IMG/VR virus record: IMGVR_UViG_3300010372_000004
Coordinates: 10,659-74,658 of that record
Reading direction: 5' to 3' (one strand)
Source of the DNA: a virus
DNA: 64,000 bases
Part shown: positions 6,982 through 24,091 of the stretch, in pieces
Layout of the letters: the number at the start of each line of letters is the position of its first letter
Position numbering within the stretch: the first letter of the stretch is position 1
The notes under the pieces: model-generated
Databases searched by the model: none
Told to the model about the DNA's origin: nothing
What the model saw: the letters and a program-made list of their open reading frames with translations, nothing else
Made by a program: the position numbers and the translations under genes

Positions 6982-7026
6982 ACGTTCTCCATTGTTGGTT
7001 AATTCTTCAACTACTTATTTTTAAGC

Positions 7027-7056
7027 AAAAACCCAATCCTAAGATTGGGTTTTATT
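7027..7056. terminator. Bidirectional intrinsic terminator
   Basis: AAAACCCAATC-ctaa-GATTGGGTTTT. Confidence 0.8.
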
Positions 7057-7072
7057 AACTGATTTACATTAA

Positions 7073-7942
7073 TTATTTACGCTGGCTGTATGTTCCAATA
7101 AGAACATTATCCAATTCGCTTTGAATAAGTTTTTGGAAACTATCAGCAGCAATTAAATAATGCGCCAATAAACCAATTGGTTTTAAGCGATAAAATACTG
7201 CAACACCAGCACCTTCTTTTTCTTGGAAGTGAGTATCTACACGGAAGCGAATACTTTGTTCTTCTAAACCAAGATATAAGTCTGTAGTGAAAATAAAATC
7301 TGTTGCCAAGGTGTTGCCTTCAGCTTCAATGGCAATTTTTTCCATGTCTGAAGCTTCATAACCTAAAGCACCAGTGTTTAATTTTGAAGTGCTGTTTTTG
7401 TCAATTTTGGCATTACGAATACCAGTAATTGCTTGAGCAAAACCGATGTTTTGACCATCTTTAAAAGCATCAACATTTGCACTACCAAGGAAATTTTCAA
7501 GAGCTTCTGCAAAAGCAGTTGCATTTAAATATTCACCAGTTGTGCGAACAAATTCGATGAACAATGGGTCTTTGCGTAATTTAAGAACCGCAATGTCGTC
7601 AGCGTGACCAGCGTTTTTGTAATCGCCAAAGTTAAGCACTGTTGTTGCTGTAAGTGATACTTCAGGATTTTCTGCATCAACAAAAGTACGCTCTAATTCA
7701 GCACCTTCTTCAGAAATTCGTGACTTCACATAATCGAAGAATGAAGCTGTATCAAGAGTGTTGAAGTGACCACGGAAACGATCACGAACTGGTTCTAAAG
7801 ATTCGTCATGTGTGTCTTGCACTTCAAAATCTTTATGAATAATCACTTTACCTTTTTGCAATTCAACAGCTTTGTAGTCTTTTGCAAAATCGTAATTTTG
7901 AGTATTACCAATTGCTGCCAATTCTGCTTGTGTATATGACAT
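7073..7942 (-). CDS. YfdQ / DUF2303-family protein
   Basis: 'SLE..RDRFRG.F.T....SF..Y', 'LNFG....GHAD..AVL.L', 'FAE.LE'; adjacent to a YfdP-like gene as in prophage CPS-53. Confidence 0.8.
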   Translation of the reverse strand: MSYTQAELAAIGNTQNYDFAKDYKAVELQKGKVIIHKDFEVQDTHDESLEPVRDRFRGHFNTLDTASFFDYVKSRISEEGAELERTFVDAENPEVSLTATTVLNFGDYKNAGHADDIAVLKLRKDPLFIEFVRTTGEYLNATAFAEALENFLGSANVDAFKDGQNIGFAQAITGIRNAKIDKNSTSKLNTGALGYEASDMEKIAIEAEGNTLATDFIFTTDLYLGLEEQSIRFRVDTHFQEKEGAGVAVFYRLKPIGLLAHYLIAADSFQKLIQSELDNVLIGTYSQRK

Positions 7943-7994
7943 TTTACTATTCCAATTTAGAGATTAAAATTTGATGTTACTTTGTGGGGTTTAA

Positions 7995-8375
7995 TTAACT
8001 TGCTTGAAAACCTGTACCAGCTGGTAGCCCTGAACCCATACTTGGATTAATACCGTCTTCTTTTGCTTTCGGTGGTGTGTCTACCAAACCTTTTTGTGGG
8101 TCCATGAAGAAAACGCTTTCACGTGTTTCATCTTCTTGTTTAGAACCTTTCTGGGTTGGCATTTTATAAGCCAATTTTGCGTTGACTTTAACACCTGTTT
8201 CAGAGTCTTCAGACATTTTATCAATGGTTAACTCCAAGACTACTTTACCTGTCTTTTTAGCACCATGAACAAGTACAGCCATTGCTGTATCAGTCAAGAC
8301 TTTTGAAAGAACTTTTTCAGTGACTCCACCACCAAGTGAACCCATAAATTCTGAAACATTTGTGGATTTAGACAT
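7995..8375 (-). CDS. YfdP-like protein
   Basis: 'TNVSEFMGSLGGGV.EKVL...L...A.AV..HG.K.GKV.LEL', 'YKMPT.KGSK.EDET'. Confidence 0.7.
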   Translation of the reverse strand: MSKSTNVSEFMGSLGGGVTEKVLSKVLTDTAMAVLVHGAKKTGKVVLELTIDKMSEDSETGVKVNAKLAYKMPTQKGSKQEDETRESVFFMDPQKGLVDTPPKAKEDGINPSMGSGLPAGTGFQAS

Positions 8376-8458
8376 AGCCTACTCCTTTTATCGTTGGCTT
8401 TTACTTAAACAAAACCTCAGAGGTAAATCGAGTTGATTTGCATCTGAGGTATTACAAC

Positions 8459-8487
8459 ACATTACTTAAAAGTTTATTTCATGTCAA
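8459..8487 (-). promoter_or_regulatory. Sigma70-type promoter for the yfdP/yfdQ-like pair
   Basis: TTGACA-17 nt-TAATGT; a hairpin (ACCTCAGA/TCTGAGGT, 8414-8450) follows. Confidence 0.65.
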
Positions 8488-9031
8488 CATTTTCTATGCT
8501 TAAACTTTCAGTAATGGCTTTTACACCTTCTTCACCAAGTAAAGCTAAAGCTTGGTGCTTTTTGGTATTTTCAATTAAACGAGCAACTGCCAAGTCTACA
8601 GCTTTCTTTTCTCGTTCTGCTGTTTTATTGGTTTCACTTGAACCAGCCAGAGGTAGGACTTGCACCAGATACTTCAAACGCAATGGGTCAATTTGTAATT
8701 CCAGTTCTGAATAGGTCATAACCTTTAAAATTTCTACAATAGTGTAAGGTTGTGCAGAATTTACTTCAGTTGGCATAACTCCATAAATAGTTTTTTCTGG
8801 GATTTTATGTGGTTGTGTAAACTGTTCAAGCCCATTCAAAACCAATCCGACTTGTTCTGGTTGAACCTCTTTTTGTTGCTGAATAATTTGATCATACTGT
8901 TCCTTGGTTACTTTCGCAGTATAACCACGGTCTTGAGATTTAGGATAACGATATTCTACAAAGAAAATTTCTTCATCCATTAATGCTAAAATTGCTGCTG
9001 CTGCTTGTCCACGTAATGTGTTTGAAGTCAT
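8474..9031 (-). CDS. Hypothetical protein
   Basis: 185-aa ORF, SD AAGGA. Confidence 0.7.
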   Translation of the reverse strand: MTSNTLRGQAAAAILALMDEEIFFVEYRYPKSQDRGYTAKVTKEQYDQIIQQQKEVQPEQVGLVLNGLEQFTQPHKIPEKTIYGVMPTEVNSAQPYTIVEILKVMTYSELELQIDPLRLKYLVQVLPLAGSSETNKTAEREKKAVDLAVARLIENTKKHQALALLGEEGVKAITESLSIENVDMK

Positions 9032-9042
9032 GGTGATTTCCT

Positions 9043-9282
9043 TTATGGGTTTTTTGGGGGATTTAAATTCTTTTCAGCTCTTAAAAAATTAACTATCTCA
9101 TTAATTTTTTTATTTGCTGTTGAATCAGACATCACTGGTGTTTTTACCTCAGTACCATTTTTTATAATAAAAACAATACCTTCTGCGATATTTGGGTTAC
9201 TTGATTTGTGGTAGGTTGTTGCTCCTACCACATGATTTAGGTCTATAATGAAGTTTTCAATGTACCACCAGTTGGGTTTCAT
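9043..9282 (-). CDS. Hypothetical protein
   Basis: SD AGGAG; tight packing. Confidence 0.65.
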   Translation of the reverse strand: MKPNWWYIENFIIDLNHVVGATTYHKSSNPNIAEGIVFIIKNGTEVKTPVMSDSTANKKINEIVNFLRAEKNLNPPKNP

Positions 9283-9284
9283 AT

Positions 9285-9674
9285 TTACTCCTTTTTCTTT
9301 GGTTGAATACCAATACAGTCAAAACCTACGATCTTGGTTGAAGAACCCCGATCATCTAAAAGAATACCGTAAACACTAACATTGACTCGGTCATTGTCCA
9401 TGAAATGAATATCGACACATTCATAATTAACGTCTGTTCCATTTTCATTTTTGAAGATGTTATAAGCGTCAAATTCTAAATGAGACCATTCGTGTAGTGA
9501 CACTCCATGCTCTCGAACTGTGTTCAAGGCATAGCCCATCAATTTTCTTACTGTCGCCCAATCGGTATCCTTTGTGTCAGTCAATTGTTTGATAGTATTG
9601 TCATTGTGTTTTTCAAAAATCTTTACTTTTTTGGTGTCTAAAACACCGACTGCTTTTTTCTGAGGTTTAGACAT
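9285..9674 (-). CDS. Hypothetical protein
   Basis: Translationally coupled ORF. Confidence 0.65.
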   Translation of the reverse strand: MSKPQKKAVGVLDTKKVKIFEKHNDNTIKQLTDTKDTDWATVRKLMGYALNTVREHGVSLHEWSHLEFDAYNIFKNENGTDVNYECVDIHFMDNDRVNVSVYGILLDDRGSSTKIVGFDCIGIQPKKKE

Positions 9675-10134
9675 TTTCCACCTTCGGAGTAACTGCTGGG
9701 ATTAAGTTTGCAATCGGACCTAATGCTTGAAGACTGATCACCATTTCTGCTGTGGTTTTGAGGGTTTCAAACCCATCAATTATTCTATCCACAATTTGAG
9801 ACCAAGATTCTTTTTCAAAGGGTTCCCATTTTACTGGTTCATTTCCAGTAAATTTAAACCATTCATTTTCAAAAGTATCATCATCAGCATCTAAAAGAAC
9901 GCCACTGAAGACAAAATCAAAAATTTTGGCACAATCGTCATAATAATCGCCTGTAGTGTTTTCATTGGTGAAGCCCAATCCACCAGCTAAGAAAGTACCT
10001 AAAGCTTGCTCTTTCAATTTGATTAAAACCTGTCGGTGAAGACCTCCAATTTTTTCAATGTGTTGGTCTAAATAATCTGTATTAATCATTTGGTGTTTCC
10101 TTCGTTTGTTCCATTTTACGGATGTGATCTTCAA
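9667..10134 (-). CDS. Hypothetical acidic protein (start probably MINTD, 10089)
   Basis: SD AAGGA before the internal ATG. Confidence 0.6.
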   Translation of the reverse strand: MKITSVKWNKRRKHQMINTDYLDQHIEKIGGLHRQVLIKLKEQALGTFLAGGLGFTNENTTGDYYDDCAKIFDFVFSGVLLDADDDTFENEWFKFTGNEPVKWEPFEKESWSQIVDRIIDGFETLKTTAEMVISLQALGPIANLIPAVTPKVENV

Positions 10135-10570
10135 TCGCTTTCCGTAATGGTGTTTGGTTTGGTTTAAAACTTCTGATAGAAGAAATGTTTTTACTAAACT
10201 TTTCTACCATAATGTTTTTTTCAAAAACATGAAGAATATCCTTATCTTTAACATTTAAATAAGGAGTTAGACTTCTATTTATACCTAAAGAACCTTGATA
10301 ACATTTAGATAATTTCTGATTGAGTTCAAGAAGGTAACTTTTTAACCCAAAACCTTCTTTTTTGACCTCAGCAGTTCTTCTTAAATCTTCAATCGTTAAT
10401 TTTATTCCAAAACCAGCTGTTTTATCCATCAAGATAGATGGGTTTATTTTTTGATGCGTTTCAAATAGTTTTTCCAGTTTTGAAAAATCTGCTTTTACTA
10501 AATTAAAAGGTGAAGAACAACTCCACCGTTTTGTTTTATCCATTTTAATCCTCAACATTGTAAGGGTCAT
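10082..10570 (-). CDS. Hypothetical basic protein (start probably MDKTK, 10544)
   Basis: SD GAGGA before the internal ATG. Confidence 0.55.
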   Translation of the reverse strand: MTLTMLRIKMDKTKRWSCSSPFNLVKADFSKLEKLFETHQKINPSILMDKTAGFGIKLTIEDLRRTAEVKKEGFGLKSYLLELNQKLSKCYQGSLGINRSLTPYLNVKDKDILHVFEKNIMVEKFSKNISSIRSFKPNQTPLRKAIEDHIRKMEQTKETPND

Positions 10571-10778
10571 AAGGGTCAGGAATCTTTAGATCGTGTAAAG
10601 CATTCACCATTCCGCAATCAAATTCTTTACGTCCAAAAGGGTCATCCTGTTCTAACCACAATCGTCTGGCAGTTTCTGAGTTGGGACTTTTATTCCACTC
10701 AGAAACTACATATTGATAACCACGGTTATGTAAATCTTGTGGGTCTTCTTTGAAGAAGTTAACCAACCATTTAAACAT
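10545..10778 (-). CDS. Hypothetical protein
   Basis: Coupled ORF. Confidence 0.6.
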   Translation of the reverse strand: MFKWLVNFFKEDPQDLHNRGYQYVVSEWNKSPNSETARRLWLEQDDPFGRKEFDCGMVNALHDLKIPDPYDPYNVED

Positions 10779-11469
10779 TTACCGATTCCTTTTCTTTCAA
10801 TACTTTAGTAATGACACGCTTTGGTACTCGTTCTAAGTACCAGCAGTTGCTATGTCCAGACTTTGCGATAAACTTTGCATCAGGATTCTTTTTGATGTAG
10901 TAACCTACAGCTTCTGCTGTAATATCACCACGGAAAAACAATTCTGAAATATACTTATATTCCTGACTCATATTGAATATTGGCTTAGTCAAAGCCTGTG
11001 CTTCAGTCAATAATTTTGCAGTGCTTGGAATATCTTTTTTCTTCAAGATCATTGCTGTTTTGTACTCTGGGCGACCTTTACGATCTCGCTTATATTCGTA
11101 TGAAACTTCATAACCCAATAAATTGGTTAATATCTTTTCCATGCAATTTAAGCCACAAGCACCATCTACTTTTAAGTAATCATCTTTAAAAGAAAAACCA
11201 TAAAAATTGTCACATTGTCCAGTCAGTTCTAGTAAAGCATTCTTGAATTGATCTTTGATAAATTGACCAACTGCTGACCCTTGCATATCATAACCACCGC
11301 CACATTCTCGGTACTTTCCATCGTTTCCGCAAACACCAGTTAAAGTGACTAAGTTATACCCATAAGTATTCTGACCACGGCTTGTACCATAGGTGAATGC
11401 TAACTCCAAATATTTCGGTAAATTAGCAAAAGTTTCTGGTTTCATTTTCATATTTTTCATGTGAGACAT
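10771..11469 (-). CDS. Conserved phage early protein with a GGGYD motif (start probably 11460)
   Basis: 'SRGQNTYGYN', 'CGGGYDMQG', 'DGACG'; function unknown. Confidence 0.65.
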   Translation of the reverse strand: MSHMKNMKMKPETFANLPKYLELAFTYGTSRGQNTYGYNLVTLTGVCGNDGKYRECGGGYDMQGSAVGQFIKDQFKNALLELTGQCDNFYGFSFKDDYLKVDGACGLNCMEKILTNLLGYEVSYEYKRDRKGRPEYKTAMILKKKDIPSTAKLLTEAQALTKPIFNMSQEYKYISELFFRGDITAEAVGYYIKKNPDAKFIAKSGHSNCWYLERVPKRVITKVLKEKESVNV

Positions 11470-11514
11470 TCCTGTATTTAGGTTAAATTTACTTTTAAAT
11501 TTTGAAGTTACTGA

Positions 11515-11850
11515 TTACTCAGTAACTTCAATCCAGCCATTTGAAACTACAACACCTTGCTTCACTAGCATCACATTTTGGTGTACTTCACCTTGTTTGA
11601 TATTGAACCAAGTATTAAAACCCAATGCTTCACAAATCGCATTGATTCGGTTTCGTGTAGTGTTTGTGACATAACCACAGAAATTTACTTTCAATTTATT
11701 TTTACTGTGATCATATTCAGCAATACGATTTCCATGTAAATCAATTGTTGATATTTCTGTTGCAACAGAATATTTAACTGTTGTGTTAGATACCGACAAA
11801 CTTCCACGTGTTTTTAAGGCTTGAGTTACTTTAGTTTCAGCTACGTTCAT
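11515..11850 (-). CDS. Conserved phage protein, function unknown
   Basis: 'LHGNRIA...GY.TNTTRNRINA', a pattern I recall from many phage early regions. Confidence 0.65.
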   Translation of the reverse strand: MNVAETKVTQALKTRGSLSVSNTTVKYSVATEISTIDLHGNRIAEYDHSKNKLKVNFCGYVTNTTRNRINAICEALGFNTWFNIKQGEVHQNVMLVKQGVVVSNGWIEVTE

Positions 11851-11870
11851 GGTTTTGCTCCAAGGTTTTT

Positions 11871-11924
11871 GGTTAATAAGTTTGGTTTGGTTAATAAGTT
11901 TGGTTTGATTAATTGAGTTTAGTT
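11871..11924. repeat. 18-bp tandem repeat
   Basis: GGTTAATAAGTTTGGTTT twice, plus a degenerate third copy. Confidence 0.85.
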
Positions 11925-13041
11925 AAACAGTTTGAGTCATACCTAATTTTTTATAATTAGGTGTGAACTCAACATCTTTCATTTCTTTGTAGTAATCAAA
12001 ATGTTCAATCACAGCAGCTTCTGATTCAAAACCACCGCATGATTCATTCTGATTAATTACATAAGCTTCAAATCGTGAGTCATATTCACAATCATCTTGA
12101 TCTTTATATTTCCAAAGATCATTTTCAGGGACAATGAAGTAAACTTCACCCCAATACCAATCTCCTTCAAGGTATTGATTCACAACTTTAAGTACATTTT
12201 CATAACCTTCTGGTTTTTCTGAAATAATTAAACAATTTGAGGAATCATAATCAGAAGCTGTGTCAATACTGAAATTAATGTGACTTTCACCTAATTGACC
12301 CCATTCCACATATTGATTGCATTCAACATAAATATACTCAAGACTTTGAGTTAAACGTGTTTCAAAGTCTGGGTCTGGAATCATGAAAAAATTCTCAAAG
12401 TTATACGTGTCGTAATAACCACGTAAGAATAAATCCAGAACATTATCCAAATCAGTGACGTTGTTTACTTCAAGTTTTTCAAGCATCTCCACATAACGAG
12501 ACGTTGTTGCTTCAATCCAGTCGGAGCCTGTCTCATCAACACAGTTTTGAATACGCTGATACAGATTGTCATTCTGAAAAATCACCAATTCTTTTAAATA
12601 AATGGTTTCAGTGATTTTTTCAAACACTTCATATCGGTCAGTATTTTCAACTTGTTTCATATATTCAATATGTGAATCAACAAGTGGTTTCCACCACTCT
12701 TTGAATATGTGTTTAGCTGCTGAATCAAAATCAACTTCTTGTTTAAAAGTATGGGTGCTTGCCAAATCTTTTACAGTGATTTCCCAATGTTTCACGGCTC
12801 TTGAGAAACCATCTCCTACAGCTTCATAGCCCTCATCCATAGCTTGACATACAGAAGCATACAAAGAGGAAGCACCATTAAAAATGTCAGAGCGTATTTC
12901 TTCATGTTTAAACCCATTGTGTGAGATTGAATTATCTTCCCAGTCTGAGTAATCACCCAGAGTGTTCCACGGGCGTTCATCATCTTCAATTAAAATAGCG
13001 TAATTACTTTTATCAAAGCGATGGATGTTATGTTCAGTCAT
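11923..13041 (-). CDS. Large acidic early protein (possible DNA mimic / anti-restriction)
   Basis: Very D/E- and aromatic-rich; C-terminal 'QYLEGDWY...ESCGGF'. Function is inference. Confidence 0.55.
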   Translation of the reverse strand: MTEHNIHRFDKSNYAILIEDDERPWNTLGDYSDWEDNSISHNGFKHEEIRSDIFNGASSLYASVCQAMDEGYEAVGDGFSRAVKHWEITVKDLASTHTFKQEVDFDSAAKHIFKEWWKPLVDSHIEYMKQVENTDRYEVFEKITETIYLKELVIFQNDNLYQRIQNCVDETGSDWIEATTSRYVEMLEKLEVNNVTDLDNVLDLFLRGYYDTYNFENFFMIPDPDFETRLTQSLEYIYVECNQYVEWGQLGESHINFSIDTASDYDSSNCLIISEKPEGYENVLKVVNQYLEGDWYWGEVYFIVPENDLWKYKDQDDCEYDSRFEAYVINQNESCGGFESEAAVIEHFDYYKEMKDVEFTPNYKKLGMTQTV

Positions 13042-13087
13042 TTCGATATTCCTATATTTAGGTTATTTAATTTCTATTTTTCAGCGT

Positions 13088-13456
13088 TTAAGCTGCTGAA
13101 ACTTTAGGGGTTTTGTCTTCTAAACTTTTTAATAAAAAGTTCAGTAGCTCGTATAAAGGACCACCGATGTTGTGTGTTGTGGTTACATCAGTGAAGATTA
13201 TATTTAGAATATTGGTTAATAATTTTTCATGATCATAACCAATTTTGTGGTAAATAGAAGCTTCTGAGGTTCCAGTAGATTTTACATGTTCTAAAAGATA
13301 CTGAAGTGTTCCCAGTTCTTTATCAATTAGGTCAAAAACCCCTGCTTGTTTTGCTCGCATTTTAAAATCAGTGCTGGACAACACCTGTGCAATTGTTGCC
13401 AATTCAAACGATTTAATAATCACCTTACTAATTAAGCTCATGGTTTTTCTCCACAT
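13088..13456 (-). CDS. Hypothetical protein (start probably MSLIS, 13441)
   Basis: SD GGAG. Confidence 0.6.
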   Translation of the reverse strand: MWRKTMSLISKVIIKSFELATIAQVLSSTDFKMRAKQAGVFDLIDKELGTLQYLLEHVKSTGTSEASIYHKIGYDHEKLLTNILNIIFTDVTTTHNIGGPLYELLNFLLKSLEDKTPKVSAA

Positions 13457-13667
13457 TAACGAAATAAGTTATTTCGGTTTGGTTGTTTTTTATGGCAGAA
13501 ATTACAGTAACTGAATATTCACCATTCAGTTTTTTTCGTAATAACGCCATGTTTACTGATCGTCGAAACTTTTCTGCTTCTTCTTTATCAGAAATGTTCC
13601 ACGTGAAACCATCTATGGTTTCTTCAACAATATTATTGATAGCTTCTGATATTGGAAATTGTTTCAT
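13428..13667 (-). CDS. Hypothetical protein
   Basis: Operon packing. Confidence 0.6.
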   Translation of the reverse strand: MKQFPISEAINNIVEETIDGFTWNISDKEEAEKFRRSVNMALLRKKLNGEYSVTVISAIKNNQTEITYFVNVEKNHELN

Positions 13668-13678
13668 AAGGACCTACT

Positions 13679-14281
13679 TTATAGTGTTTCAATTCGAATA
13701 ATGTCGTGAGGGCTATAATCAACAATTCGTTCAGAACAGTCACGACCATCTTGGTGATAACGTCGATTACGAACACGTGGGTCACTACCTAATAAACCTA
13801 AGTTTAAAAATACTTGACCTGTTTCGCTATCCACAAATTTTCCAAGCAGCATATACCACAGTCCGTTTCGAGTTTGAATTTTGCTGTGTTGTTTCACAAG
13901 ATTGCTGTCCAACAAATCAAACTTTTTATGTGAGACATGATTTTTGTATGCTGCTGTTTTAATGATGAAAGAATTTTCACCTTCACCAACTGTTACTTTA
14001 ACTACATCTGCTTGATTTGTTTCATTATTTGGTAAAAAACTACCAGTTTCAGAAATAACAATTTCTGCACCAACTTGGCGATCTTCACGTTTAGAGTATC
14101 GGGTTAAATTAAATTTAACTCGTTTTGGTCCCGCTATGTGAGGTGTTTCCATTTGTGTTGTTTCACGTGGAACATCAGAAATCACGCTGGCGTTCAAAAC
14201 TCGAAAGCTCAAACCGCTGGCTATTGTGATGAACTTGATTTCATCAAGATGTTGAATAAAATTGTTTTCTTGGTTTGTCAT
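13679..14281 (-). CDS. Hypothetical protein
   Basis: 200-aa ORF, ATGA-coupled to the upstream gene. Confidence 0.65.
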   Translation of the reverse strand: MTNQENNFIQHLDEIKFITIASGLSFRVLNASVISDVPRETTQMETPHIAGPKRVKFNLTRYSKREDRQVGAEIVISETGSFLPNNETNQADVVKVTVGEGENSFIIKTAAYKNHVSHKKFDLLDSNLVKQHSKIQTRNGLWYMLLGKFVDSETGQVFLNLGLLGSDPRVRNRRYHQDGRDCSERIVDYSPHDIIRIETL

Positions 14282-14973: not shown

Positions 14974-14982
14974 AGTTTACTC

Positions 14983-15171: not shown

Positions 15172-15176
15172 GGTTG

Positions 15177-15718: not shown

Positions 15719-15736
15719 CAATTAATGTTTAATCAT

Positions 15737-15796
15737 TTGATTAAGCGGTTGATTAAGCGGTTGATTAAGCGGTTGATAAAGCAGTTGATTAATCAG
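15737..15796. repeat. 12-bp tandem repeat array
   Basis: TTGATTAAGCGG three times, then TTGATAAAGCAG and TTGATTAATCAG. Confidence 0.9.
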
Positions 15797-16115: not shown

Positions 16116-16185
16116 GGTTAATGCTCCAAGGTTGTTTGGTTAGTTGGTTGGTTAATTGATTTAAGTTTAATTAAATTTATTAGGT

Positions 16186-17049
16186 TTACTTTTGAAGTAA
16201 ATCTAATAAATGTTGAGCGAGTTCAAATCGTTTTTCACCATAATCGCCAGTGTATAGTGGCAAAGTATCGTATGAATAATGACCTGCTTTATATATTATT
16301 TCTGGGTTTTCCATTTTTACGCTATAACTATCAGCTATTGGATATTGAATATTTCCACTAAAATGTTCCCATTTTTTAAAAGCAAAACGTAAAAACTCCT
16401 CCACATGATCAATATAGTTAGTACCTATATTGTCTTCTAAATTACTGCAAAGTCCTGTTATTTGATCGAGACTATAAGCATTTTCAGAACCAATAACGTC
16501 TACCTTTGGGTCTTCTTGAATATACTGTTTATCTTCAATCAAAGCTTTTAAAAAGTTTTCTAAATCATGCCAATATTTAGCATCATCTTTGAAAAAGATT
16601 TTTTTAACTAAATCTTTAAAATCTGTTTTTTCATGCAAAAGATTATATAAATCCTCTTTTGACATAAACAATTTCCCATCCTGTGTATAAACTTTTGGAA
16701 TTACCCATTCAGGTTCAAATTGATAATTCCTAGATGGTTCCAATGTTGCAAAAAACTTACTACACCATTTTGGGTTATATGTAATTTCAACATGTGATAC
16801 TAAACTTCGATCAATGGTTGATTCAGAAGCTTCGTCTATTTTTAATATTGGGTCATTGCTACACATAAAGGCGTGGACATTTTTCACACCTTCTTCAATA
16901 ACTCGCTGACGACCTGTTTCACGTGAATAAAACTGCACATTGGTTAAGATTAAGTTATCGCCACGGTCAATAACTTTCCCATTACTTAGTATAGAAAAAT
17001 CTCCACGGTGGAGATTTTTATATATTCGATATTTGAATTGGTTTTTCAT
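16186..17049 (-). CDS. Conserved phage protein, probably two domains
   Basis: N-terminal 'YKNLH..FSI...G.VI...GRQRV...KNVHAF' pattern; unrelated acidic C-terminal half. Confidence 0.65.
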   Translation of the reverse strand: MKNQFKYRIYKNLHRGDFSILSNGKVIDRGDNLILTNVQFYSRETGRQRVIEEGVKNVHAFMCSNDPILKIDEASESTIDRSLVSHVEITYNPKWCSKFFATLEPSRNYQFEPEWVIPKVYTQDGKLFMSKEDLYNLLHEKTDFKDLVKKIFFKDDAKYWHDLENFLKALIEDKQYIQEDPKVDVIGSENAYSLDQITGLCSNLEDNIGTNYIDHVEEFLRFAFKKWEHFSGNIQYPIADSYSVKMENPEIIYKAGHYSYDTLPLYTGDYGEKRFELAQHLLDLLQK

Positions 17050-17082
17050 TTACTTCTCCGAGAATCGGTTAGCTATTTTAAA

Positions 17083-17400
17083 TTAATCCTCTAAAAAGTT
17101 TTCCAGCTCTGGAAAACTTTCTGGTACTCCAAATTGTCTTTGGACAGCTTTCGTGTTGTTCCAGTCTTTAAACCACTGAGATTCAAATTTTTCATTTGCA
17201 TCTGTGACTTTATCTAAGTATTTTTGCAATTCTGCAATTATACGTTGATTTCTGTTAAAAATAATCCAGCCGTCTTCCAGTTGATCTGAGCTTAAAAAAT
17301 CATTGTGTCCACAACAAGTACAGACCTCTAAATGAAAATCTATAACGTCACAGCGTTTACACAACTTCCTTTTAGCATATTCTGGGTTAGCCACAGTCAA
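17083..17400 (-). CDS. Zinc-ribbon protein
   Basis: CKRC...CTCCG followed by a coiled coil. Confidence 0.6.
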   Translation of the reverse strand: MTVANPEYAKRKLCKRCDVIDFHLEVCTCCGHNDFLSSDQLEDGWIIFNRNQRIIAELQKYLDKVTDANEKFESQWFKDWNNTKAVQRQFGVPESFPELENFLED

Positions 17401-17776
17401 TACCTTCCCGAAAATGATGAAAACTTACATAAGGTAAATTTTTATCTTTGTGAAATTTACGTTCAGCAGCAAGTAAATTCTTTAAGCTCAGTTCAGAATC
17501 AACTTCATGCTTCCATTTATCTTTTACATCAACAGTCTGGTAATACCATTCGTTGCCATGTTTATAACCAACTTCTACAGTAGCTGGGTCAAAAAATTGA
17601 GTGTATTCACTACCGTCTGCAAATTTGGTAATGAGTACAAGTCTTGGTTGAGATCGGGACTTAGCCCATTCTCTCATTGCTGAATGAATCCTATCAGCGC
17701 AATAGTAGCGATAATCGGGGTGTCGCCAGTCTGGTTTTGGTAGCCATTTTTCATGATACGTTTGCGTCTTCATCAA
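17387..17776 (-). CDS. Hypothetical protein
   Basis: Coupled ORF. Confidence 0.6.
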   Translation of the reverse strand: MMKTQTYHEKWLPKPDWRHPDYRYYCADRIHSAMREWAKSRSQPRLVLITKFADGSEYTQFFDPATVEVGYKHGNEWYYQTVDVKDKWKHEVDSELSLKNLLAAERKFHKDKNLPYVSFHHFREGIDCG

Positions 17777-18176
17777 ATTTACTCCGAATACTTAACCCAT
17801 CAATGGTTGGGTTCCAGTCAATGTCTTGGACAGAATTACCTGACATTTTACAAACAACTATTTTCCCATTTAAATCTTTATAACCATTGAGGTTTTTGGA
17901 TTTCCAGATATGTTGAATGGTTAAAATTTGCTGTTTAATATCATCGAAAGTAGTATTAATATTGGTTTCATCCCAATAATTTAAAAGACTTTCCAAAGTT
18001 GGCATTACCGCCATTCTGGTTTCTGTCACAGTCCCATCTTTCTGAAATTTCAATTCGGCATAAAGACCTTGGGCTTTAGTATCACAGTCAGTTAAGACAC
18101 TGATATTTTCAATTGTTGCGATTTCTAAATTCATTATTGGCTCCAAACTAATCAAAGTCATATTCAAATTCACCAT
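17751..18176 (-). CDS. Hypothetical protein (true start probably internal)
   Basis: SD GGAG before MNLEI. Confidence 0.55.
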   Translation of the reverse strand: MVNLNMTLISLEPIMNLEIATIENISVLTDCDTKAQGLYAELKFQKDGTVTETRMAVMPTLESLLNYWDETNINTTFDDIKQQILTIQHIWKSKNLNGYKDLNGKIVVCKMSGNSVQDIDWNPTIDGLSIRSKFDEDANVS

Positions 18177-18417
18177 CTGAATTAATGAATTGCATCACAA
18201 AACTTTTCAGTTTGCTTTTCATCATTTTATTTTCAGACAGTAACTTTTGTGTGCGTTCCTGATAATATTCCATAGCTTTAGTGAACGCTTGATGTTCGGT
18301 TTCAGCTCTCATTGCCAAGTTCATGCTTTGAGCATGATCATATAACCAATAACCATCTCGGCATTTATGAAGGTTAAAAAATTCATTGCTGAGAATTTTT
18401 TCACATTTTTCAGCCAT
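18148..18417 (-). CDS. Conserved small phage protein
   Basis: 'CRDGYWLYD...MNLAMRA.TE..A...A..YYQ.R'. Confidence 0.65.
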   Translation of the reverse strand: MAEKCEKILSNEFFNLHKCRDGYWLYDHAQSMNLAMRAETEHQAFTKAMEYYQERTQKLLSENKMMKSKLKSFVMQFINSDGEFEYDFD

Positions 18418-18863
18418 TAATCAGTCCCTCCATCAATGCTAATGATATTTTCAGCATGGTAGACCCAGTCTGTATCTACCAAACCTCTTTTGTTATACAT
18501 TCCAGCTGCTTCAACACCTTTAAACTTAATCATGATGTTGTATTGTGGATGTTTAAGGTAACGCTCATGAATTGTTGAGAAGCTTTCAACAATCTTAATG
18601 TCACCATCCAAAGTCATTATTTCGGACCCAACTTTGATTCGTTTCAGAACGTCAGCACCTACTTCATATTTGTCACGGAAGTAGTCAATGGCATCTAAAT
18701 AAGATTTTTCTTCATCATTCCAACCACCGATGTTGAAAATAGCCCATAAGGTGTTCATGACATTGTTGTAGTCGTCAATAAGGTCGGCATCACCGCATTT
18801 TTCGGACACTTTTTGGTGCATGTGGTTGACAAATGATAAAAAAAGCAGGGTCTCCCTTTTCAT
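18417..18863 (-). CDS. Hypothetical protein
   Basis: TAATG coupling to the downstream gene. Confidence 0.6.
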   Translation of the reverse strand: MKRETLLFLSFVNHMHQKVSEKCGDADLIDDYNNVMNTLWAIFNIGGWNDEEKSYLDAIDYFRDKYEVGADVLKRIKVGSEIMTLDGDIKIVESFSTIHERYLKHPQYNIMIKFKGVEAAGMYNKRGLVDTDWVYHAENIISIDGGTD

Positions 18864-19206
18864 GCTCTAAAATTCTTTGTTCAAAAGTCAAAGGTTTTGC
18901 AGTTTCTTGAGGATTTTCTGCAACCCAATTTTCTGGATGAAGTACATCTTCCAAAGGTTGAGGTGGAATATTCAAAACTGCAAAATAATCAGTCATATCA
19001 TTGTTATTCAAACCATCTATGAAAGTTTGAGTTGTGTCTGTTTTGAAATATTCATCGTTTTCATTACTGGCTTCAATCTCAGCCAAAATTTTTGACCAAG
19101 GTTCGCCAGAATTTAAACGCTCTTGTAACCACTCTTGATAATCATCAATTCGCATATCTTGCTTATGGTTGTGTGCACTGCTGATTGTGATAAACACTTG
19201 TTGCAT
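18790..19206 (-). CDS. Hypothetical protein (start revised from 19251 to MQQVF, 19206)
   Basis: TAACCGA-N3-TCGGAGA motif lies 5 nt before the ATG at 19206. Confidence 0.6.
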   Translation of the reverse strand: MQQVFITISSAHNHKQDMRIDDYQEWLQERLNSGEPWSKILAEIEASNENDEYFKTDTTQTFIDGLNNNDMTDYFAVLNIPPQPLEDVLHPENWVAENPQETAKPLTFEQRILEHEKGDPAFFIICQPHAPKSVRKMR

Positions 19207-19225
19207 GATTTTCTCCGAATTTCGG

Positions 19226-19606
19226 TTAATTGTTTGAGGGATTTTTGACATAACAATTATCAGGGTTGAAACCTAAGCTTTTGTTTTTTCTGATAATTCT
19301 ACTGCCTTTGACATAGTTTTGTGAGTCACACCACTTGAAGAAATTTTCACGTTCTAACCATTCGGTGCAAATGGTGATTCCAATTTCTCCAAATTTATAG
19401 AAATCATCGTGAGTTTTGCTCAGACATTTTCTACGCATTGTTTCATAACTAGCCTTGGCTGGATGATTTGAATAGCTCTTGACACGGCTTAAATCACAGC
19501 AAGGTCTGCAAATATAAAAGCCTTTTTTACGACTCTCATATTCTGCTTGCCTACTGACAGTAAAAACCAGCTGGCAAGATTTACAAGTCAGCTGATACTT
19601 TTTCAA
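19226..19606 (-). CDS. Degenerate HNH-type homing-endonuclease-like protein with an N-terminal zinc finger
   Basis: 'M.R.C......FYKFG..GITIC.EW...F..W...Y......R......F.PDNC' follows the YGGRGI.VC.EW...IDRID...Y.P.NC family, but IDRID reads IIRKN. Confidence 0.6.
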   Translation of the reverse strand: MKKYQLTCKSCQLVFTVSRQAEYESRKKGFYICRPCCDLSRVKSYSNHPAKASYETMRRKCLSKTHDDFYKFGEIGITICTEWLERENFFKWCDSQNYVKGSRIIRKNKSLGFNPDNCYVKNPSNN

Positions 19607-19911
19607 TTTCTATACTCCCGAATTAATTTGGAGAATAAACGATTTCGCCAATGTCCTGTCGTTGGTCTTTGATCGTTATAAATCACCTGACTTAATTGAA
19701 TATAAAACTTACGTTTTGAATATCGCTTTCGCCAGCTTTTTAATAACATCAAAGTATTATGAACTTCACATTCAAGCTCTCGCTTATATTGACGGTTGGT
19801 GTTTGGAATCAATTCATGGATAGAAACTTTGACACCATCGTTGATTTTATTTGTCAACGATGGGTATTTTTTCTGAGCCAAGAATTGAAGATGTTTTTGA
19901 GTTACTTTCAT
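19603..19911 (-). CDS. Hypothetical basic protein
   Basis: SD AAGGA. Confidence 0.6.
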   Translation of the reverse strand: MKVTQKHLQFLAQKKYPSLTNKINDGVKVSIHELIPNTNRQYKRELECEVHNTLMLLKSWRKRYSKRKFYIQLSQVIYNDQRPTTGHWRNRLFSKLIREYRN

Positions 19912-19947
19912 AATCTTTCCTTAACTCATAAATTGTTATTTAATAGT

Positions 19948-20181
19948 TTACCAATTCTCTAATAAATTTAAGAAATTTGGTTTGATTGTATATTTTCGAT
20001 GGGTTTGATAACTCGCTGCACCATAACGGATAAATTCACAGTTGGTCATTTCAGAAAACATAATTGAGCTTCTTAAATCTCGCTCAATTAGCATGTTATA
20101 TAATTTCAACACTGCTTTATTTTCTTCAGTTTCACCCTCTCGTTCTATTTGAGCTTTGATTGAATCCAAGACTTTGCCCAT
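19948..20181 (-). CDS. Hypothetical protein
   Basis: SD GAGGT. Confidence 0.6.
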   Translation of the reverse strand: MGKVLDSIKAQIEREGETEENKAVLKLYNMLIERDLRSSIMFSEMTNCEFIRYGAASYQTHRKYTIKPNFLNLLENW

Positions 20182-20198
20182 AGATTTACCTCAAATTT

Positions 20199-20474
20199 TT
20201 ACAATAAATGCTGTGGAATAAAGGATAATTTACGAGTTTTCTCAAAGTATTTGAGCCAATTTTCTTTACTCATAAATATACAAGGTGATTCAAAAGTAAT
20301 ACCTGAATTAAGTCGGGTGCACTTATGAAAACCAGACTTATACTTGAATCCCATTTTTTGAACTTGACCAATCAATATGTGATGTTGCCGACCTATTAAA
20401 TACCCAATAGATCGACTGTCGGCATTTTCAAGGTCAGTAACACGAAATTGATTGGCATACGTTTTACTGACCAT
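20199..20474 (-). CDS. Hypothetical protein
   Basis: SD GAGGT. Confidence 0.6.
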   Translation of the reverse strand: MVSKTYANQFRVTDLENADSRSIGYLIGRQHHILIGQVQKMGFKYKSGFHKCTRLNSGITFESPCIFMSKENWLKYFEKTRKLSFIPQHLL

Positions 20475-20482
20475 TCGTTACC

Positions 20483-20773
20483 TCAAAAATAATAGTGATT
20501 GGTGATGTGAATACTTTGGACGAATGGACATTGTTTGACTATGTCCTTGAAACTGTTGTGGATACAATCGACGTACCCATCTGGATTACAGATTGATACT
20601 TGAATAGAAGTTTGAGATGTTTTAATCATCTCGGCTTCAGCATAGACTTCGTCAAAGTCCTTGCCATTTTTCTTGAAAATGGCTTTTAGTTTGTCAATTG
20701 GATTTCGTGAACTATCCAATTTGTCAAGATTAAGCTCAACAGCTGCTTCTAGCCATAAAGACATATTGCTCAC
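20483..20773 (-). CDS. Hypothetical protein
   Basis: SD GAGGTG. Confidence 0.6.
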   Translation of the reverse strand: MSNMSLWLEAAVELNLDKLDSSRNPIDKLKAIFKKNGKDFDEVYAEAEMIKTSQTSIQVSICNPDGYVDCIHNSFKDIVKQCPFVQSIHITNHYYF

Positions 20774-20776
20774 CTC

Positions 20777-21190
20777 TTACATCCCTTGCTTCCACTGCAT
20801 ACAAGCCATTGCTCGGAAGTATGGAATGGTCACTGGGTCAAGACACCAATGTTTGCCATTCATACCAGTTTCATGAATTTTCTTATACAAAAGTATTCCA
20901 AACATGCCTTGGTTTTGTCCAAAACACAGGCATGAACGGATTTGCTGACCTTTTTCGTTCAATTCATAAAACCCATCTTTTTCAATGACGTAATGCTCAA
21001 TGTTTAATTGTTTGAGTACATCATTAAATTCCTGAACTTCAGCATCGGTTAAGTTTCTGCCAAGGTTCGGGATAAAACCAAGGTCGAAATAGATGAAACC
21101 ATTTGTTGTTGGGTCATAAGTGTGGACAGTTCTCAAATATTGAGTCTTTGCATCTTTTACATGCAGTTGTGTCATGTTTTGATGATTCAT
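20777..21190 (-). CDS. Hypothetical protein
   Basis: SD AAGGA. Confidence 0.6.
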   Translation of the reverse strand: MNHQNMTQLHVKDAKTQYLRTVHTYDPTTNGFIYFDLGFIPNLGRNLTDAEVQEFNDVLKQLNIEHYVIEKDGFYELNEKGQQIRSCLCFGQNQGMFGILLYKKIHETGMNGKHWCLDPVTIPYFRAMACMQWKQGM

Positions 21191-21204
21191 TGCTTGGTTA
21201 TCCT

Positions 21205-21480
21205 TTACTTAATTTCGTTGATCAATGTTGGTTGATTACCTGTTCTAAACAAATGATCGAATAGCGCACTCAAAAATAAAAACAGCAAGGCATCAACAAT
21301 ACAAAAAAGAATTTTCAGCTTTGCAATTTCTAAAGTTATTTTTGACCAGTTTCTGCCGTCGAAAGCTATTTGAAAAAAGATAATAACCATGATGATGATT
21401 GCAATAAATCCAATCCCAAAAAAGAACCAAGAAACGTATTTGAAAATGATGTTTCTTGAATAGTGAAATGAACTTTTCAT
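21205..21480 (-). CDS. Small two-TM membrane protein
   Basis: Two hydrophobic helices; SD GAGGA. Confidence 0.65.
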   Translation of the reverse strand: MKSSFHYSRNIIFKYVSWFFFGIGFIAIIIMVIIFFQIAFDGRNWSKITLEIAKLKILFCIVDALLFLFLSALFDHLFRTGNQPTLINEIK

Positions 21481-21945
21481 GATTTTCCTCTGTTTTTGAA
21501 TTTACGCTTGTACGCTTGTTAGAGCGATTTTAATTTGCTGACGCTACGTTTCCCTATGTGGTGCTTAAAAGTGCGCTAAAAACGCTGTTTTTGGGCATTT
21601 TAGAGGGGGTCAGCTTGGGTTGGTGACGCAGATTTTGGTTTTTCACTCAAAAATTGGGTGTTTTGGTGGGGTGTTTTGTTGGGGTTTTTGAGTGAGTTTT
21701 CGGTGACGGTTTTGAGTCAGGTTGAGGTTCAGGTTTTGACTCGGTTATGACTCGTTTGTGGATTTTGCTACAGACACAGACGGAGTCGGGGTCTGTGGGT
21801 GTCGGCTGTGCGAATAGGTTATGGTGATGGTTTTGTCAAGGGTTTTTACACAAGTTAACGAAAAGGTTCTGTTTTTAACAAAAGATTACGTTAAGGTTGT
21901 GGTTGAGGTCTTGACTTGGATTAGGGTTTAGGCAGGGTGGTTAAA
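21481..21945. other. Non-coding G/T-skewed tract with long hairpins
   Basis: Stems GCTGAC/GTCAGC (21537-21614), TCACTCAAAAA/TTTTTGAGTGA (21643-21695), GAGTCA/TGACTC and CACAGAC/GTCTGTG; several loops are almost purely G/T. Confidence 0.6.
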
Positions 21946-22007
21946 AAATAATCAAATTACGTGAAACGGAAAGTAATCTGATTAAAAAATGAACACCTTG
22001 AAAAAGT

Positions 22008-22421
22008 CCTTTAAAAACGCAGGGTTAACTCTCTAGGAATTACGGAGATGGAGAAAAAGCCCTATTTTGGTGCGAAAAATCGTCAAATGAGACAATTTCT
22101 CATTAACAAAAAACCTTTAAAAATCGCATGGTTAACTCTCTAGGAATTAAACTGACCAAAAGTGCTTTTATATTAACTATATTTATTTACTCTATTTTTT
22201 TAAATTTTTTCATTTTTATCACACCCAAATTTTATTTTCTCAATTGTAATTCCTAGAGAGTTAACCAATGGATTTTAAAGAGAAAACTGGTAATGAGAAA
22301 ATTTCTCAATTTGCATAAATTCCGCCACTTTTTCACCAAAATGGTCCAATCTGTGACAGAATCTCTCACTGATCAATTTCCTACAGCCCTTTATCCATCA
22401 CTGGTTAACTCTCTAGGAAAT
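22008..22421. repeat. Iteron array with dyad symmetry around an AT-rich core: probable replication origin
   Basis: GGTTAACTCTCTAGGAATTA at 22023-22042 and 22130-22149, inverted at 22247-22266, variant at 22403-22421; AT-rich core 22150-22246. Repeats are certain; origin function is inferred. Confidence 0.7.
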
Positions 22422-22712
22422 AAGAAATTCTTGAACTTTTAAGTAATCTTCTGGCTTAAATCCATTTTTCCACTCAAAATTCCAACCTTGTCCAGTTTTT
22501 TCGATCAACAAACCATAAGATTTTACTTGACTTCCACCACGTATTCTGTATGCAGTCCCAACTCGGACTCTGTCAAGGTTTTTAACACTGTCATCGAACT
22601 TGATGTAAACGGCGTTAAAACCACGTGGAACCCAACAAACTGTGTCTGGAACAGGGAAAATTGACGCTATTTTTGGCGAATTTAATTTGTTTTTTACGTT
22701 TTGAATATCCAT
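22413..22712 (-). CDS. Hypothetical protein adjacent to the putative origin
   Basis: SD AAGGA; its stop codon lies inside the fourth iteron. Confidence 0.65.
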   Translation of the reverse strand: MDIQNVKNKLNSPKIASIFPVPDTVCWVPRGFNAVYIKFDDSVKNLDRVRVGTAYRIRGGSQVKSYGLLIEKTGQGWNFEWKNGFKPEDYLKVQEFLIS

Positions 22713-22751
22713 TTTGGTATCCTTTATGTGATAACTTTTGTCACAGATGCA

Positions 22752-22786
22752 TAAAAAGAAAGGGCTAAGTCATTGATTTAGCCCTT
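22752..22786 (-). terminator. Intrinsic terminator (overlaps an IHF consensus)
   Basis: AAGGGCTAA/TTAGCCCTT plus T-run; AATCAATGACTTA matches WATCAANNNNTTR. Confidence 0.65.
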
Positions 22787-22811
22787 GTAAATGATGTGTT
22801 TCAGACAATTT

Positions 22812-23258
22812 TTATTTTGTCAAATTTGTAGTAACTTTCACGTAATCTTGATCAGAAATTGAGCGTTTTAAAGCCTTAAATTGAGCCTTAATCCATGCCA
22901 ATTGTTCCAGTCGAAGATCAGTTAAAGTTACAGCCGATTGCCAAGAATAGACCTTATTTTCGAGATACCATTCTTTAGCTTCAGTTAACAATCCAATCTT
23001 TTGGTCGATTGATTTAATCCAAAATTTGAAATCTGTAAAGTTAGAAACTGCTTTTAATACCGAACAATAAGTCACAATATGAGTTAAAACCCAAGCGATT
23101 TGGTTCGATTTTTTATGAGCTTCATAATTGAATGGCTGCTTATATGCTTCAAAAGCAACACGATTTTGCACAGAAGTATCTGTGATAAAAGTATTTGATA
23201 AAACACGGACAGCATCAAAGCGCAGAATTTCAGGGAACTCTATATGAATTTCTTTCAT
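22812..23258 (-). CDS. Hypothetical protein
   Basis: 148-aa ORF. Confidence 0.6.
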   Translation of the reverse strand: MKEIHIEFPEILRFDAVRVLSNTFITDTSVQNRVAFEAYKQPFNYEAHKKSNQIAWVLTHIVTYCSVLKAVSNFTDFKFWIKSIDQKIGLLTEAKEWYLENKVYSWQSAVTLTDLRLEQLAWIKAQFKALKRSISDQDYVKVTTNLTK

Positions 23259-23356
23259 GATTTTGACTCACTATATTGATTTCAATTTTGAATTTAACAA
23301 AATTTGCCGATTAAGGCAGTTTTTACCACGAATGAACGCCTATTACACGGCGCATA

Positions 23357-23447
23357 AATATAAGCAAAAACAAAGACTTACATCTTTGTTTTTGCTTATA
23401 TTCAACTATTTAGGCTCAGTCCTAGCCCAAGCTTGGGCTTGGGCTAG
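23357..23447. repeat. Palindrome cluster
   Basis: Perfect 20-bp stem 23357-23376/23383-23402; CTAGCCCAAGC-ttgg-GCTTGGGCTAG at 23422-23447, which has an alternative 16-bp palindrome register. Confidence 0.85.
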
Positions 23448-23466
23448 ATTTTTGCTTTTGACATTT

Positions 23467-24066
23467 TTACGCAACTTTTTGAAGGTTATCTTGAGAAAGC
23501 TCATTTAAGCGACCTTGCAAAACTTGCATCATTAAAAGCACTTGGCTTTCATCCAAAGTATTTAATGTGCTAGTCAATTCTGACAAGTCGATTTTTTTAG
23601 CTTCTACACTTGGCACACTTGTATCATGTGCACCTGTCATGAAGCTAATCACTTTTAAAAGTTGTTTAGCTTGAGTATGTGCTACATAAGCATTTTTGAT
23701 TTCTTTTAAAATGCTCATATCTTGAAAAGCTTTGATAGTCATAATTTTATCAAGGCTTTCAGCTTGGCTAGTTTTAATAACTTCACCTTTTAAGTGAATA
23801 TTGATCATAGCTCTAAGCTCATGATATGAATCAGTATTGCATACTTTAGCAAGTGATTTTTCGCTAAGGTTAAAAACATTTTCAAAATGTGACAAAGGCA
23901 TAGTCTTTGCCCATGTTGGCAACTCGTTGCCTTTCATCATGGCTTTAGCAATTGTTAGTAAAACGCTAGCATTTTTACCTACATTAACAAGATTAGATAA
24001 AACGCTAATTTTTTCGTTTGTCACTGTTGCGTTATATGTAACAGCTTGATTTTGCTTGTTTAACAT
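23467..24066 (-). CDS. Lone immediate-early protein at the predicted first-ejected genome end
   Basis: 199 aa, SD AAGGA; oligonucleotide usage differs from neighbours; function unknown. Confidence 0.65.
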   Translation of the reverse strand: MLNKQNQAVTYNATVTNEKISVLSNLVNVGKNASVLLTIAKAMMKGNELPTWAKTMPLSHFENVFNLSEKSLAKVCNTDSYHELRAMINIHLKGEVIKTSQAESLDKIMTIKAFQDMSILKEIKNAYVAHTQAKQLLKVISFMTGAHDTSVPSVEAKKIDLSELTSTLNTLDESQVLLMMQVLQGRLNELSQDNLQKVA

Positions 24067-24091
24067 GGCTTTATTCCTTAATAGGTTAGGT

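Follow-up and report, generated by a model that had tools for sequence, protein, structure and literature searches.

The stretch analysed here is a 64,000-nucleotide window (bases 10659-74658) of IMGVR_UViG_3300010372_000004, a virus record of 74,658 bp with 36% G+C. Its subject is a set of small hairpins that begin with TAACC, close on the GGA of the Shine-Dalgarno sequence (SD) and stand just before the start codons of nine early genes. We called ~90 genes, and gene starts are those of our own open reading frame (ORF) calls. A block of small early genes, mostly ORFans, lies on the minus strand at ~5000-25600 of the window; the remainder includes the primase gene (25766-28441), a structural module on the plus strand (29350-52480) and a minus-strand arm for nucleotide metabolism and recombination. 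The closest cultured relatives are the Acinetobacter baumannii siphoviruses Mystique, EAb13, TCUP2199 and fJoAci01/04, with ~65% nucleotide identity in the structural genes and 65% amino acid identity in the primase. Three syntenic uncultured relatives were found in IMG/VR, namely G001 (73 kb), G002 (76 kb, with terminal repeats) and G003 (76 kb), whose primases are 81, 79 and 71% identical, respectively, to that of the phage under study (G000).

The original prediction listed nine TAACC...GGA sequences in three classes, and all nine were recovered on the minus strand, at the window positions given below (sequences in mRNA sense; stem energies as predicted at 37 C). The class A sites end exactly 5 nt before the ATG, as had been claimed. 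A1 (15662-15677, TAACC-G-AAGT-C-GGAGA, -2.7 kcal/mol) follows a terminator-like hairpin and precedes the gene of a 159-aa protein of unassigned function (ATG 15656). The two-nucleotide loop originally drawn for A1 is sterically impossible, and the effective stem is therefore the 3-bp CCG/CGG, with a 4-nt loop. A2 (17055-17071, TAACCGA-TTC-TCGGAGA) and A3 (19212-19228, TAACCGA-AAT-TCGGAGA) both have 4-bp stems of -3.3 kcal/mol, and precede genes for a 287-aa protein with a Phage_L5_gp82 domain (ATG 17049) and a 138-aa ORFan (ATG 19206), respectively. At A3, the TAA of the motif doubles as the stop codon of the upstream ORF 19226-19606. The distance from TAA to ATG is 20-27 nt across the sites and falls in all three frames, with A3 the only case in which it ends an upstream ORF; a role of the TAA as an in-frame stop or coupling signal was rejected.

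Class B comprises B1 (13048-13065, TAACCTA-AATA-TAGGAAT, 4-bp stem, -2.5 kcal/mol) before the gene of a 372-aa protein (ATG 13041), B2 (11468-11485, TAACCT-AAATAC-AGGAAT, 3-bp stem, -1.4 kcal/mol) before that of a 229-aa protein, and B3 (24073-24093, (TAACC)TAACCT-ATTA-AGGAAT, 3-bp stem, -1.4 kcal/mol) before that of a 199-aa protein (ATG 24066), the first gene past the long early leader. The true start of the B2 gene is the ATG at 11460, where its orthologues begin, and not the ATG within the motif (11469). The B2 site is identical in a close variant of the phage, L019, in which the stretch 5' of B2 is also tandemly duplicated. In class C, C1 (11858-11875, TAACCAA-AAACC-TTGGAG, 4-bp stem, -2.2 kcal/mol) precedes the gene of a 111-aa protein of the Kyano_Gp96 family (ATG 11850), and C2 (16124-16142, TAACCAA-ACAACC-TTGGAG, 4-bp stem, -2.5 kcal/mol) that of a 108-aa DUF7447 protein whose ATG (16115) is itself preceded by TAACC. 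C3 (6987-7001, TAACCA-ACAA-TGGAG, 3-bp stem, -1.2 kcal/mol) lies ~30 nt past a terminator-like hairpin, before the gene of a 138-aa protein (ATG 6981). Copies within a class are near-identical over ~20 nt; two positions separate B1 from B2, and flanking AACCAA repeats are common to C1 and C2. The nine downstream proteins are mutually unrelated (BLASTP E > 0.3), being ORFans or carrying domains of unknown function, and the motif was therefore not spread by gene duplication. About half of the nine sites have a terminator-like hairpin upstream, which is separate from the 3-4-bp TAACC mini-stem. Directly upstream of several sites there are also short A/C-rich tandem repeats, with units such as ACCAAACTTATTAACCAA or TAACACCAAATACG (window 11876-11915 and 16143-16165; G002 29900-29937 and 33950-33990); the one before C1 (11876-11915) is an 18-nt tandem repeat ending in TTAACCAA.

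The whole 74.7-kb genome was searched on both strands with a descriptor requiring TAACC, a stem of at least 3 bp that includes CC/GG, and GGA within 16 nt. Ten of the 17 matches, representing the nine distinct sites (B3 has two overlapping TAACC and is counted twice), fall within window 6987-24093 on the minus strand and precede a start codon by 9-12 nt, and the remaining seven are inside genes. Comparison of a genome-wide search with shuffled sequence had been proposed as a check of the original prediction. For this we used a strict form of the motif (TAACC; a stem of 3 bp or more with CC at its opening and the GG of the SD at its close; GGA 4-15 nt before ATG) and 2000 shuffles of the upstream bases in which SD and spacer were kept fixed. 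The strict motif precedes 9 genes, compared with 0.28 expected and a maximum of 5 in any shuffle, and TAACC is the most enriched non-SD 5-mer at -40 to -1, occurring before 15 genes where 4.2 are expected. The claimed restriction to early genes was borne out as well: the motif is found before 9/41 genes of the early block and 0/49 others (Fisher p = 5e-4), including 0/21 structural genes, before which it had not been noticed in the original reading either. Among genes with an upstream gap of at least 25 nt, the corresponding figures are 9/21 in the early block and 0/24 elsewhere (Fisher p = 3-5e-4 across the two comparisons).

The nine stems differ in sequence, and the original prediction held that the pairing is conserved rather than the sequence. 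To judge this, sites were picked blind to pairing, by taking an AACC in the leader and then the first GG[A/G/T] able to serve as SD, and a script counted pairs between the base after CC and the base before GG, with column shuffles as the null. In the AACC context, 21/57 sites of the four genomes were paired, compared with a shuffle mean of 13.3 (p = 0.004), and 9/16 compared with 4.1 in G000 alone (p = 0.006). Sliding the partner base as a control gave 13-15 pairs, and CC not preceded by AA showed no enrichment (19/73 paired, 22.4 expected). A broader scan, for any CC/GG hairpin of 3 bp or more on the SD, found 45 in the four genomes where 21.1 were expected (p = 4e-6), made up of 16 in G000 (5.3 expected), 9 in G001 (3.9), 10 in G002 (6.2) and 10 in G003 (5.8); in eight distant primase-bearing phage loci and in Mystique the same scan gave counts close to expectation.

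Compensatory changes were seen when orthologous genes were compared. An SD hairpin is present in 13/39 comparisons at orthologues of G000 hairpin genes and in 9/155 at orthologues of other genes (p = 2e-5). Both arms have changed at A1 (CCG/CGG in G000, CCC/GGG in G002), at A2 (CCGA/TCGG to CCC/GGG, the G002 site reading TAACCC-AATC-GGGAGA), at B2 (CCT/AGG to CCC-AATCAA-GGG in G002; G001 has CCT-AAAC-AGG) and at C2 (CCAA/TTGG to ACCT-AAACAC-AGGT in G001 and ACCT-AAA-AGGT in G002). At B3 and C3 the stems are kept and the loops differ (B3: CCT-TTAT-AGG in G001, CCT-TTA-AGG in G002; C3: TAACCA-ATG-TGGAT in G002), and the B1 site of G002 reads CCT-GATTAA-AGG. Across the clade, the first variable pair occurs in all four Watson-Crick combinations (G-C, U-A, A-U and C-G). 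The claim of conserved pairing is thus upheld by the compensatory changes in relatives and by the enrichment specific to AACC, whereas the covariation within the genome, on which it was originally based, is weaker evidence than it looks. The position of the element, its confinement to early genes, its departure from randomness and the persistence of its pairing when both arms change are all observed features.

These observations bear on a rival account, namely that the element has no dedicated function and that A/C-rich leaders with AACC words, obligatory GGA-containing SDs and shared ancestry have yielded 3-4 bp of complementarity by drift. In its favour, the stems are minimal, all four genomes have frequent AACC words in their leaders, tandem repeats included, G001 and G003 have lost the motif with no obvious consequence, and the independent classes number effectively 3-4 only. 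Drift of this kind does not readily produce nine sites where 0.28 are expected, a pairing excess limited to the AACC context and absent with slid partners, hairpins that are retained at orthologous genes after both arms have changed, or strict confinement to the early block, and we consider this account rather improbable. Judged from sequence comparison, the nine sites constitute a real, lineage-specific family of start-associated elements with a putative function.

The distribution of the motif among relatives is uneven. Metagenomes from groundwater, wastewater, an estuary and other sources contain near-identical DNA. When the 229-aa and 287-aa proteins encoded behind B2 and A2 were used to scan viral and metagenome contigs, a single extra near-identical contig, of 3 kb, was returned, and the protein database contained 18 further homologues, including some on 74.7-kb and 54-kb contigs. 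The cultured Acinetobacter phages Mystique and EAb13 show no enrichment of the motif. Scans of IMG/VR with the exact patterns of classes A and B gave single matches per contig, ~3% of them start-linked and on contigs unrelated to the phage, and these are chance singletons. By this sequence survey the motif is specific to the lineage. It is strong in G000 and G002 but weak in the other two relatives, G001 and G003, and the cultured Acinetobacter phages largely lack it.

The mini-hairpin is the predicted minimum free energy structure of every one of the nine leaders. Predicted stem energies range from -1.2 to -3.3 kcal/mol at 37 C and from -2.8 to -5.7 kcal/mol at 15 C, which would make these marginal structures. 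The loops vary from 3 to 6 nt with the same stems, which fits an RNA hairpin and would not be tolerated by a dimeric DNA site. This weakens the proposal that the element is a DNA-level site for a phage DNA-binding protein that also touches the repeats of a putative origin. The proposal draws on the TTAACC common to the leaders and to repeats at window 22008-22421, where it forms the 3' end of a 20-bp iteron-like repeat (..CCTAGAGAGTTAACC) that occurs four times. Only these 6 nt are in common, however, the orientation of the motif and its distance to start codons are strict, and the palindromic part, variable in sequence as well as in spacing (3-6 nt), does not suit a single DNA-binding specificity. 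We regard a DNA site of this kind as barely credible. The repeat region itself is a non-coding gap with four copies, three direct and one inverted, of a 20-35-bp repeat with the core TTCCTAGAGAGTTAACC in a symmetric arrangement, and looks like an iteron array or origin. Another non-coding stretch, of ~450 nt at window 21500-21950 on the minus strand, is markedly rich in C and A and poor in G on the early-sense strand.

A promoter embedded in the hairpin is another conceivable function. The T4 late genes e (lysozyme), soc and I-TevI have hairpins that occlude the ribosome-binding site (RBS) and rely on a late promoter inside the hairpin, and in these, as at the TAACC sites, the SD of a phage gene lies within the 3' arm; the T4 hairpins are far more stable. 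By the same logic, an A-rich -10-like hexamer directly 5' of TAACC would start transcripts at the invariant A after CCN; such transcripts would lack the 5' arm and be translatable, whereas in read-through transcripts the SD would be occluded. Hexamers such as TAAAAT, AACAAT and AAGAAT do abut TAACC at A1, A2, A3, C3 and a G002 site (39706), and the A seven nt further on is invariant in 9/9 sites. The same clade also has a clear example of this arrangement before its tail-fibre-arm genes (TGnTAGAAT, a 5-7-bp stem burying the SD, a T-run and ATG; window 665-694), with stems that covary across the four genomes. At the TAACC sites, by contrast, a consensus scan detected no sigma-70 promoter, and by hand scoring none reaches 9/12 matches to the sigma-70 consensus, the best having at most 8/12. 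The -35 elements score 2-4 of 6, a TG extension is lacking, and B3, C1 and C2 are without any -10-like hexamer. The bases upstream are merely A-rich, as in all leaders, and hold no further position conserved among the sites. Several sites also lie only 3-20 nt past a terminator, and therefore have no room for a promoter. A promoter within the hairpin is, in our estimate, decidedly improbable.

Hairpins of a second and much stronger type that bury an SD were seen elsewhere in the genome, at window 665-694 on the minus strand before a gene for a 1451-aa protein that starts at 659, and, beyond the window, at 6125-6170 of the G000 genome. Their layout is an extended -10-like TGTTAGAAT, a 5-10-bp stem with AGGAG as its 3' arm, a T-run and ATG. 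This layout recurs at the orthologous genes of G001, G002 and G003, but with other stems, and the stems found (CCTCAC/GTGAGG, CCCCTGA/TCAGGGG, CCTCAAC/GTTGAGG, CCTCCA/TGGAGG and CCTCAG/CTGAGG) show clear covariation. This type looks like a terminator, a promoter and an occluded RBS in one element.

Returning to the TAACC motif, its repeated near-identical copies could instead reflect recombination. The ~20-nt blocks of TAACC, hairpin and SD would then serve as repeated homology for the exchange of early ORFan cassettes, as in T4-type promoter-early stem-loops (PeSLs), with near-identity within the genome arising from spread or gene conversion and the palindromy being incidental or serving recombination. 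Within-class copies are near-identical beyond the stem (B1/B2 and C1/C2), every genome has its own set of classes (CCC/GGG occurs in G002 only), the ORFans downstream are unrelated, and several sites have terminator-like hairpins and short tandem repeats immediately 5' of them. PeSLs, too, end in SD and start codon, with crossing over between the -10 box and the SD (PMC2839356). When contigs from four metagenomes of different studies were compared with window 6900-24200, environmental variants ~97-98% identical to the phage were found to differ by clean whole-gene deletions or replacements in the early block. In one of these (run X7), 42 nt replace 16128-17401, a 1.27-kb replacement that ends exactly at the GG of the C2 SD (16127/16128). 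The four other indels (8487/9297, 10089/10546, 14983/15187 and 19928/20203) end at ordinary gene borders, often at an SD, where there is no TAACC. Only 1/5 mapped breakpoints thus falls within the motif, and the original suggestion that the motif provides microhomology for shuffling early genes drew weak support from this comparison of relatives. Homology of 15-20 nt is also very short, the sites lack the sigma-70 promoter of PeSLs, and recombination alone leaves unexplained both the self-complementarity of every class and the pairing at orthologous sites with changed arms. The variant data permit a recombination patch without favouring it, and we consider such a function unlikely.

Two further features lean towards translation. 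In this clade AACC is ~3-fold enriched at -32 to -19 relative to start codons, and AACC directly abutting ATG is enriched 16-fold in G000, 7-fold in G002 and 18-fold in G003, with no enrichment in G001. This positioning by start codons points to a translation-linked word and not a transcription signal. A related observation is that starts with AACC or ACC right before the ATG (e.g. window 11850, 13441, 16115 and 57764) are far more frequent than expected. CC occupies -2/-1 of the start in 14/90 G000 genes, compared with 2.9 expected, and is enriched there in G002 and G003 as well, though not in G001; the enrichment follows the genomes with a common upstream TAACC box. For the epsilon sequence of T7 gene 10, complementarity to nt 458-466 of 16S rRNA has been proposed. 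Epsilon (UUAACUUUA upstream of the SD) is in use as a translation enhancer (PMC9590205). The T7 leader and the TAACC sites both have a UUAAC word 7-8 nt upstream of GGAGA (T7 ..tgTTTAACtttaagaaGGAGAtata..ATG; A1 ..aatTTAACcgaagtcGGAGAtagtgATG). The likeness in word and spacing leans to a translational reading by analogy, although it concerns one T7 leader, and is a lead only, and epsilon has not been described as a hairpin with the SD.

The best explanation, which we advance tentatively and at somewhat less than an even chance, is that the element works in cis, as an RNA leader by which the loading of ribosomes on free-standing early cistrons is set or gated. Each cistron of the early operon that is not translationally coupled would carry a leader of three parts. 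The first would be an unpaired A/C-rich, G-poor stretch ending in (U)UAACC, the second a 3-4-bp stem-loop with a 5' arm beginning at that CC and the first half of the SD (N'GG of GGAG or AGGAA) as its 3' arm, and the third the start codon, 9-12 nt past the GG. The weak stem would partly occlude the SD and so set or gate 30S loading on the early genes, with temperature, ribosomal protein S1 or another factor as possible triggers of the gate. What we infer is a function of the element at the RNA level and in translation, together with the sign of its effect.

A number of points weigh against a leader of this kind. Given the near-identity of copies within a class, the nine sites amount to roughly three independent stem classes, and the within-genome evidence rests on about that number. 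The stems are very short and easily melted by the ribosome, and any effect on expression may consequently be small, and the invariant unpaired TAA is not accounted for by occlusion alone. G002 has its own internally similar leader class (TTAACCCAATC..), and an exchange of whole cassettes could therefore pass for compensatory change. Most orthologous sites of G001 and G003 lack the motif, which is thus dispensable for the genes concerned. G001, a relative of G000 as close as G002, carries AAACC-type versions before other genes, and G003 has two clear copies only. Finally, in a few relatives the stem lies just 5' of the real SD (G002 35754; G001 18011 and 22042), which argues against simple SD occlusion.

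The original prediction also envisaged a class-wide signal for translational control or RNA processing, and made a comparison with RegA and RegB of T4, which control early RBSs. In a scheme of the latter kind, about nine early mRNAs would make up a post-transcriptional regulon, with UAACC and the SD stem as its address label. The single-stranded UAACC beside the mini-hairpin would be recognised by an early protein of the phage or by an RNA-binding factor of the host, which would shut off or cleave these mRNAs together at the early-to-middle switch, a functional analogue of RegA/RegB in an unrelated siphovirus lineage. If the specificity of the factor co-evolved with the clade, the strength of the motif in G000 and G002 and its near-absence from G001 would be accounted for. 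The targets of the T4 proteins and the TAACC sites are alike in presenting a common early-RBS feature that a phage factor could read. RegB needs GGAG, however, and the class B sites have GGAAU. Scans of the 39 early proteins against Pfam and PHROGs returned no RegA, RegB, nuclease or RNA-binding family, and among the larger proteins no RNA polymerase or sigma factor was recognisable. Rfam matches in window 5000-26000 were limited to chance-level miRNA and sRNA hits far below gathering scores. A trans-acting phage RNA was also considered and rejected; when the nine leaders were compared with the 1.1-kb structured-RNA/tRNA region no class-wide partner emerged, and only the duplexes of B1 (z = -3.4) and A3 (z = -2.7) stand out. 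These searches found neither a RegA/RegB-like protein nor a class-wide complementary phage RNA. We give a regulon of this type little credence.

Start-associated motifs have been described in other phages. Cluster K mycobacteriophages, which are high-GC actinophages, carry start-associated sequences (SAS), a fixed 13-mer GGGATAGGAGCCC, and ESAS, 17-bp imperfect inverted repeats (Pope et al. 2011, PMC3203893; PMC12699233). Like the TAACC motif, these are short, contain the SD, stand a few nt before the starts of a subset of about 10-20 mostly non-structural genes, are tied to gene families across related phages and sometimes come with inverted repeats of variable spacer. In the TAACC motif, by contrast, the conserved word is TAACC, the 3-4-bp stems differ between classes, and the SD itself is the 3' arm. 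The motif does not match the SAS consensus (at most 2 mismatches, 3-8 nt before a start) and has no sequence relationship to it, whereas its association with a subset of non-structural genes and its conservation per gene family (the 13/39 and 9/155 given above) are of the SAS type. The resemblance is one of behaviour and not of membership. PeSLs (Arbiol et al. 2010, PMC2839356; Comeau et al. 2014, PMC4122927) are, similarly, repeated intergenic cassettes before ORFans in a plastic early region, end in SD and start, have stem-loops or terminators nearby and are candidate sites of cassette exchange. They combine a strong sigma-70 promoter with a stable GC-rich terminator stem, whereas the TAACC sites have a tiny stem that involves the SD and no detectable promoter of the PeSL kind (-35, -10 and AT-rich UP region; see the scores above). 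Lacking the defining sequence of the one and the promoter of the other, the motif is placed in neither family; the closest system in behaviour is the cluster K SAS, and the closest in genomic setting the T4-type PeSLs.

Two further features of the genome were noted. CCNGG does not occur at all in the 74,658 bp of G000, where composition predicts ~78 copies, which suggests complete avoidance of a restriction site. A gene for a GIY-YIG homing endonuclease (PHROG 314) at window 1978-2616 on the minus strand, adjoining an exonuclease gene, is without counterpart in G001-G003 and is likely a recent mobile insertion.

Start-associated motifs of phages have been known since 2011 and are still unexplained, and the TAACC family offers an independent example in a Gram-negative-type, AT-rich lineage. 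The conserved feature in this case is visibly a structure, with pairs kept through double changes, and thus goes beyond a word. Should the element turn out to be without measurable effect, it would be a caution against reading function into mini-palindromes at ribosome-binding sites. If, on the other hand, it tunes or gates the translation of host-takeover genes, it would represent a compact and portable regulatory part, and would also provide a marker of early genes in uncultured relatives of the Acinetobacter phages.

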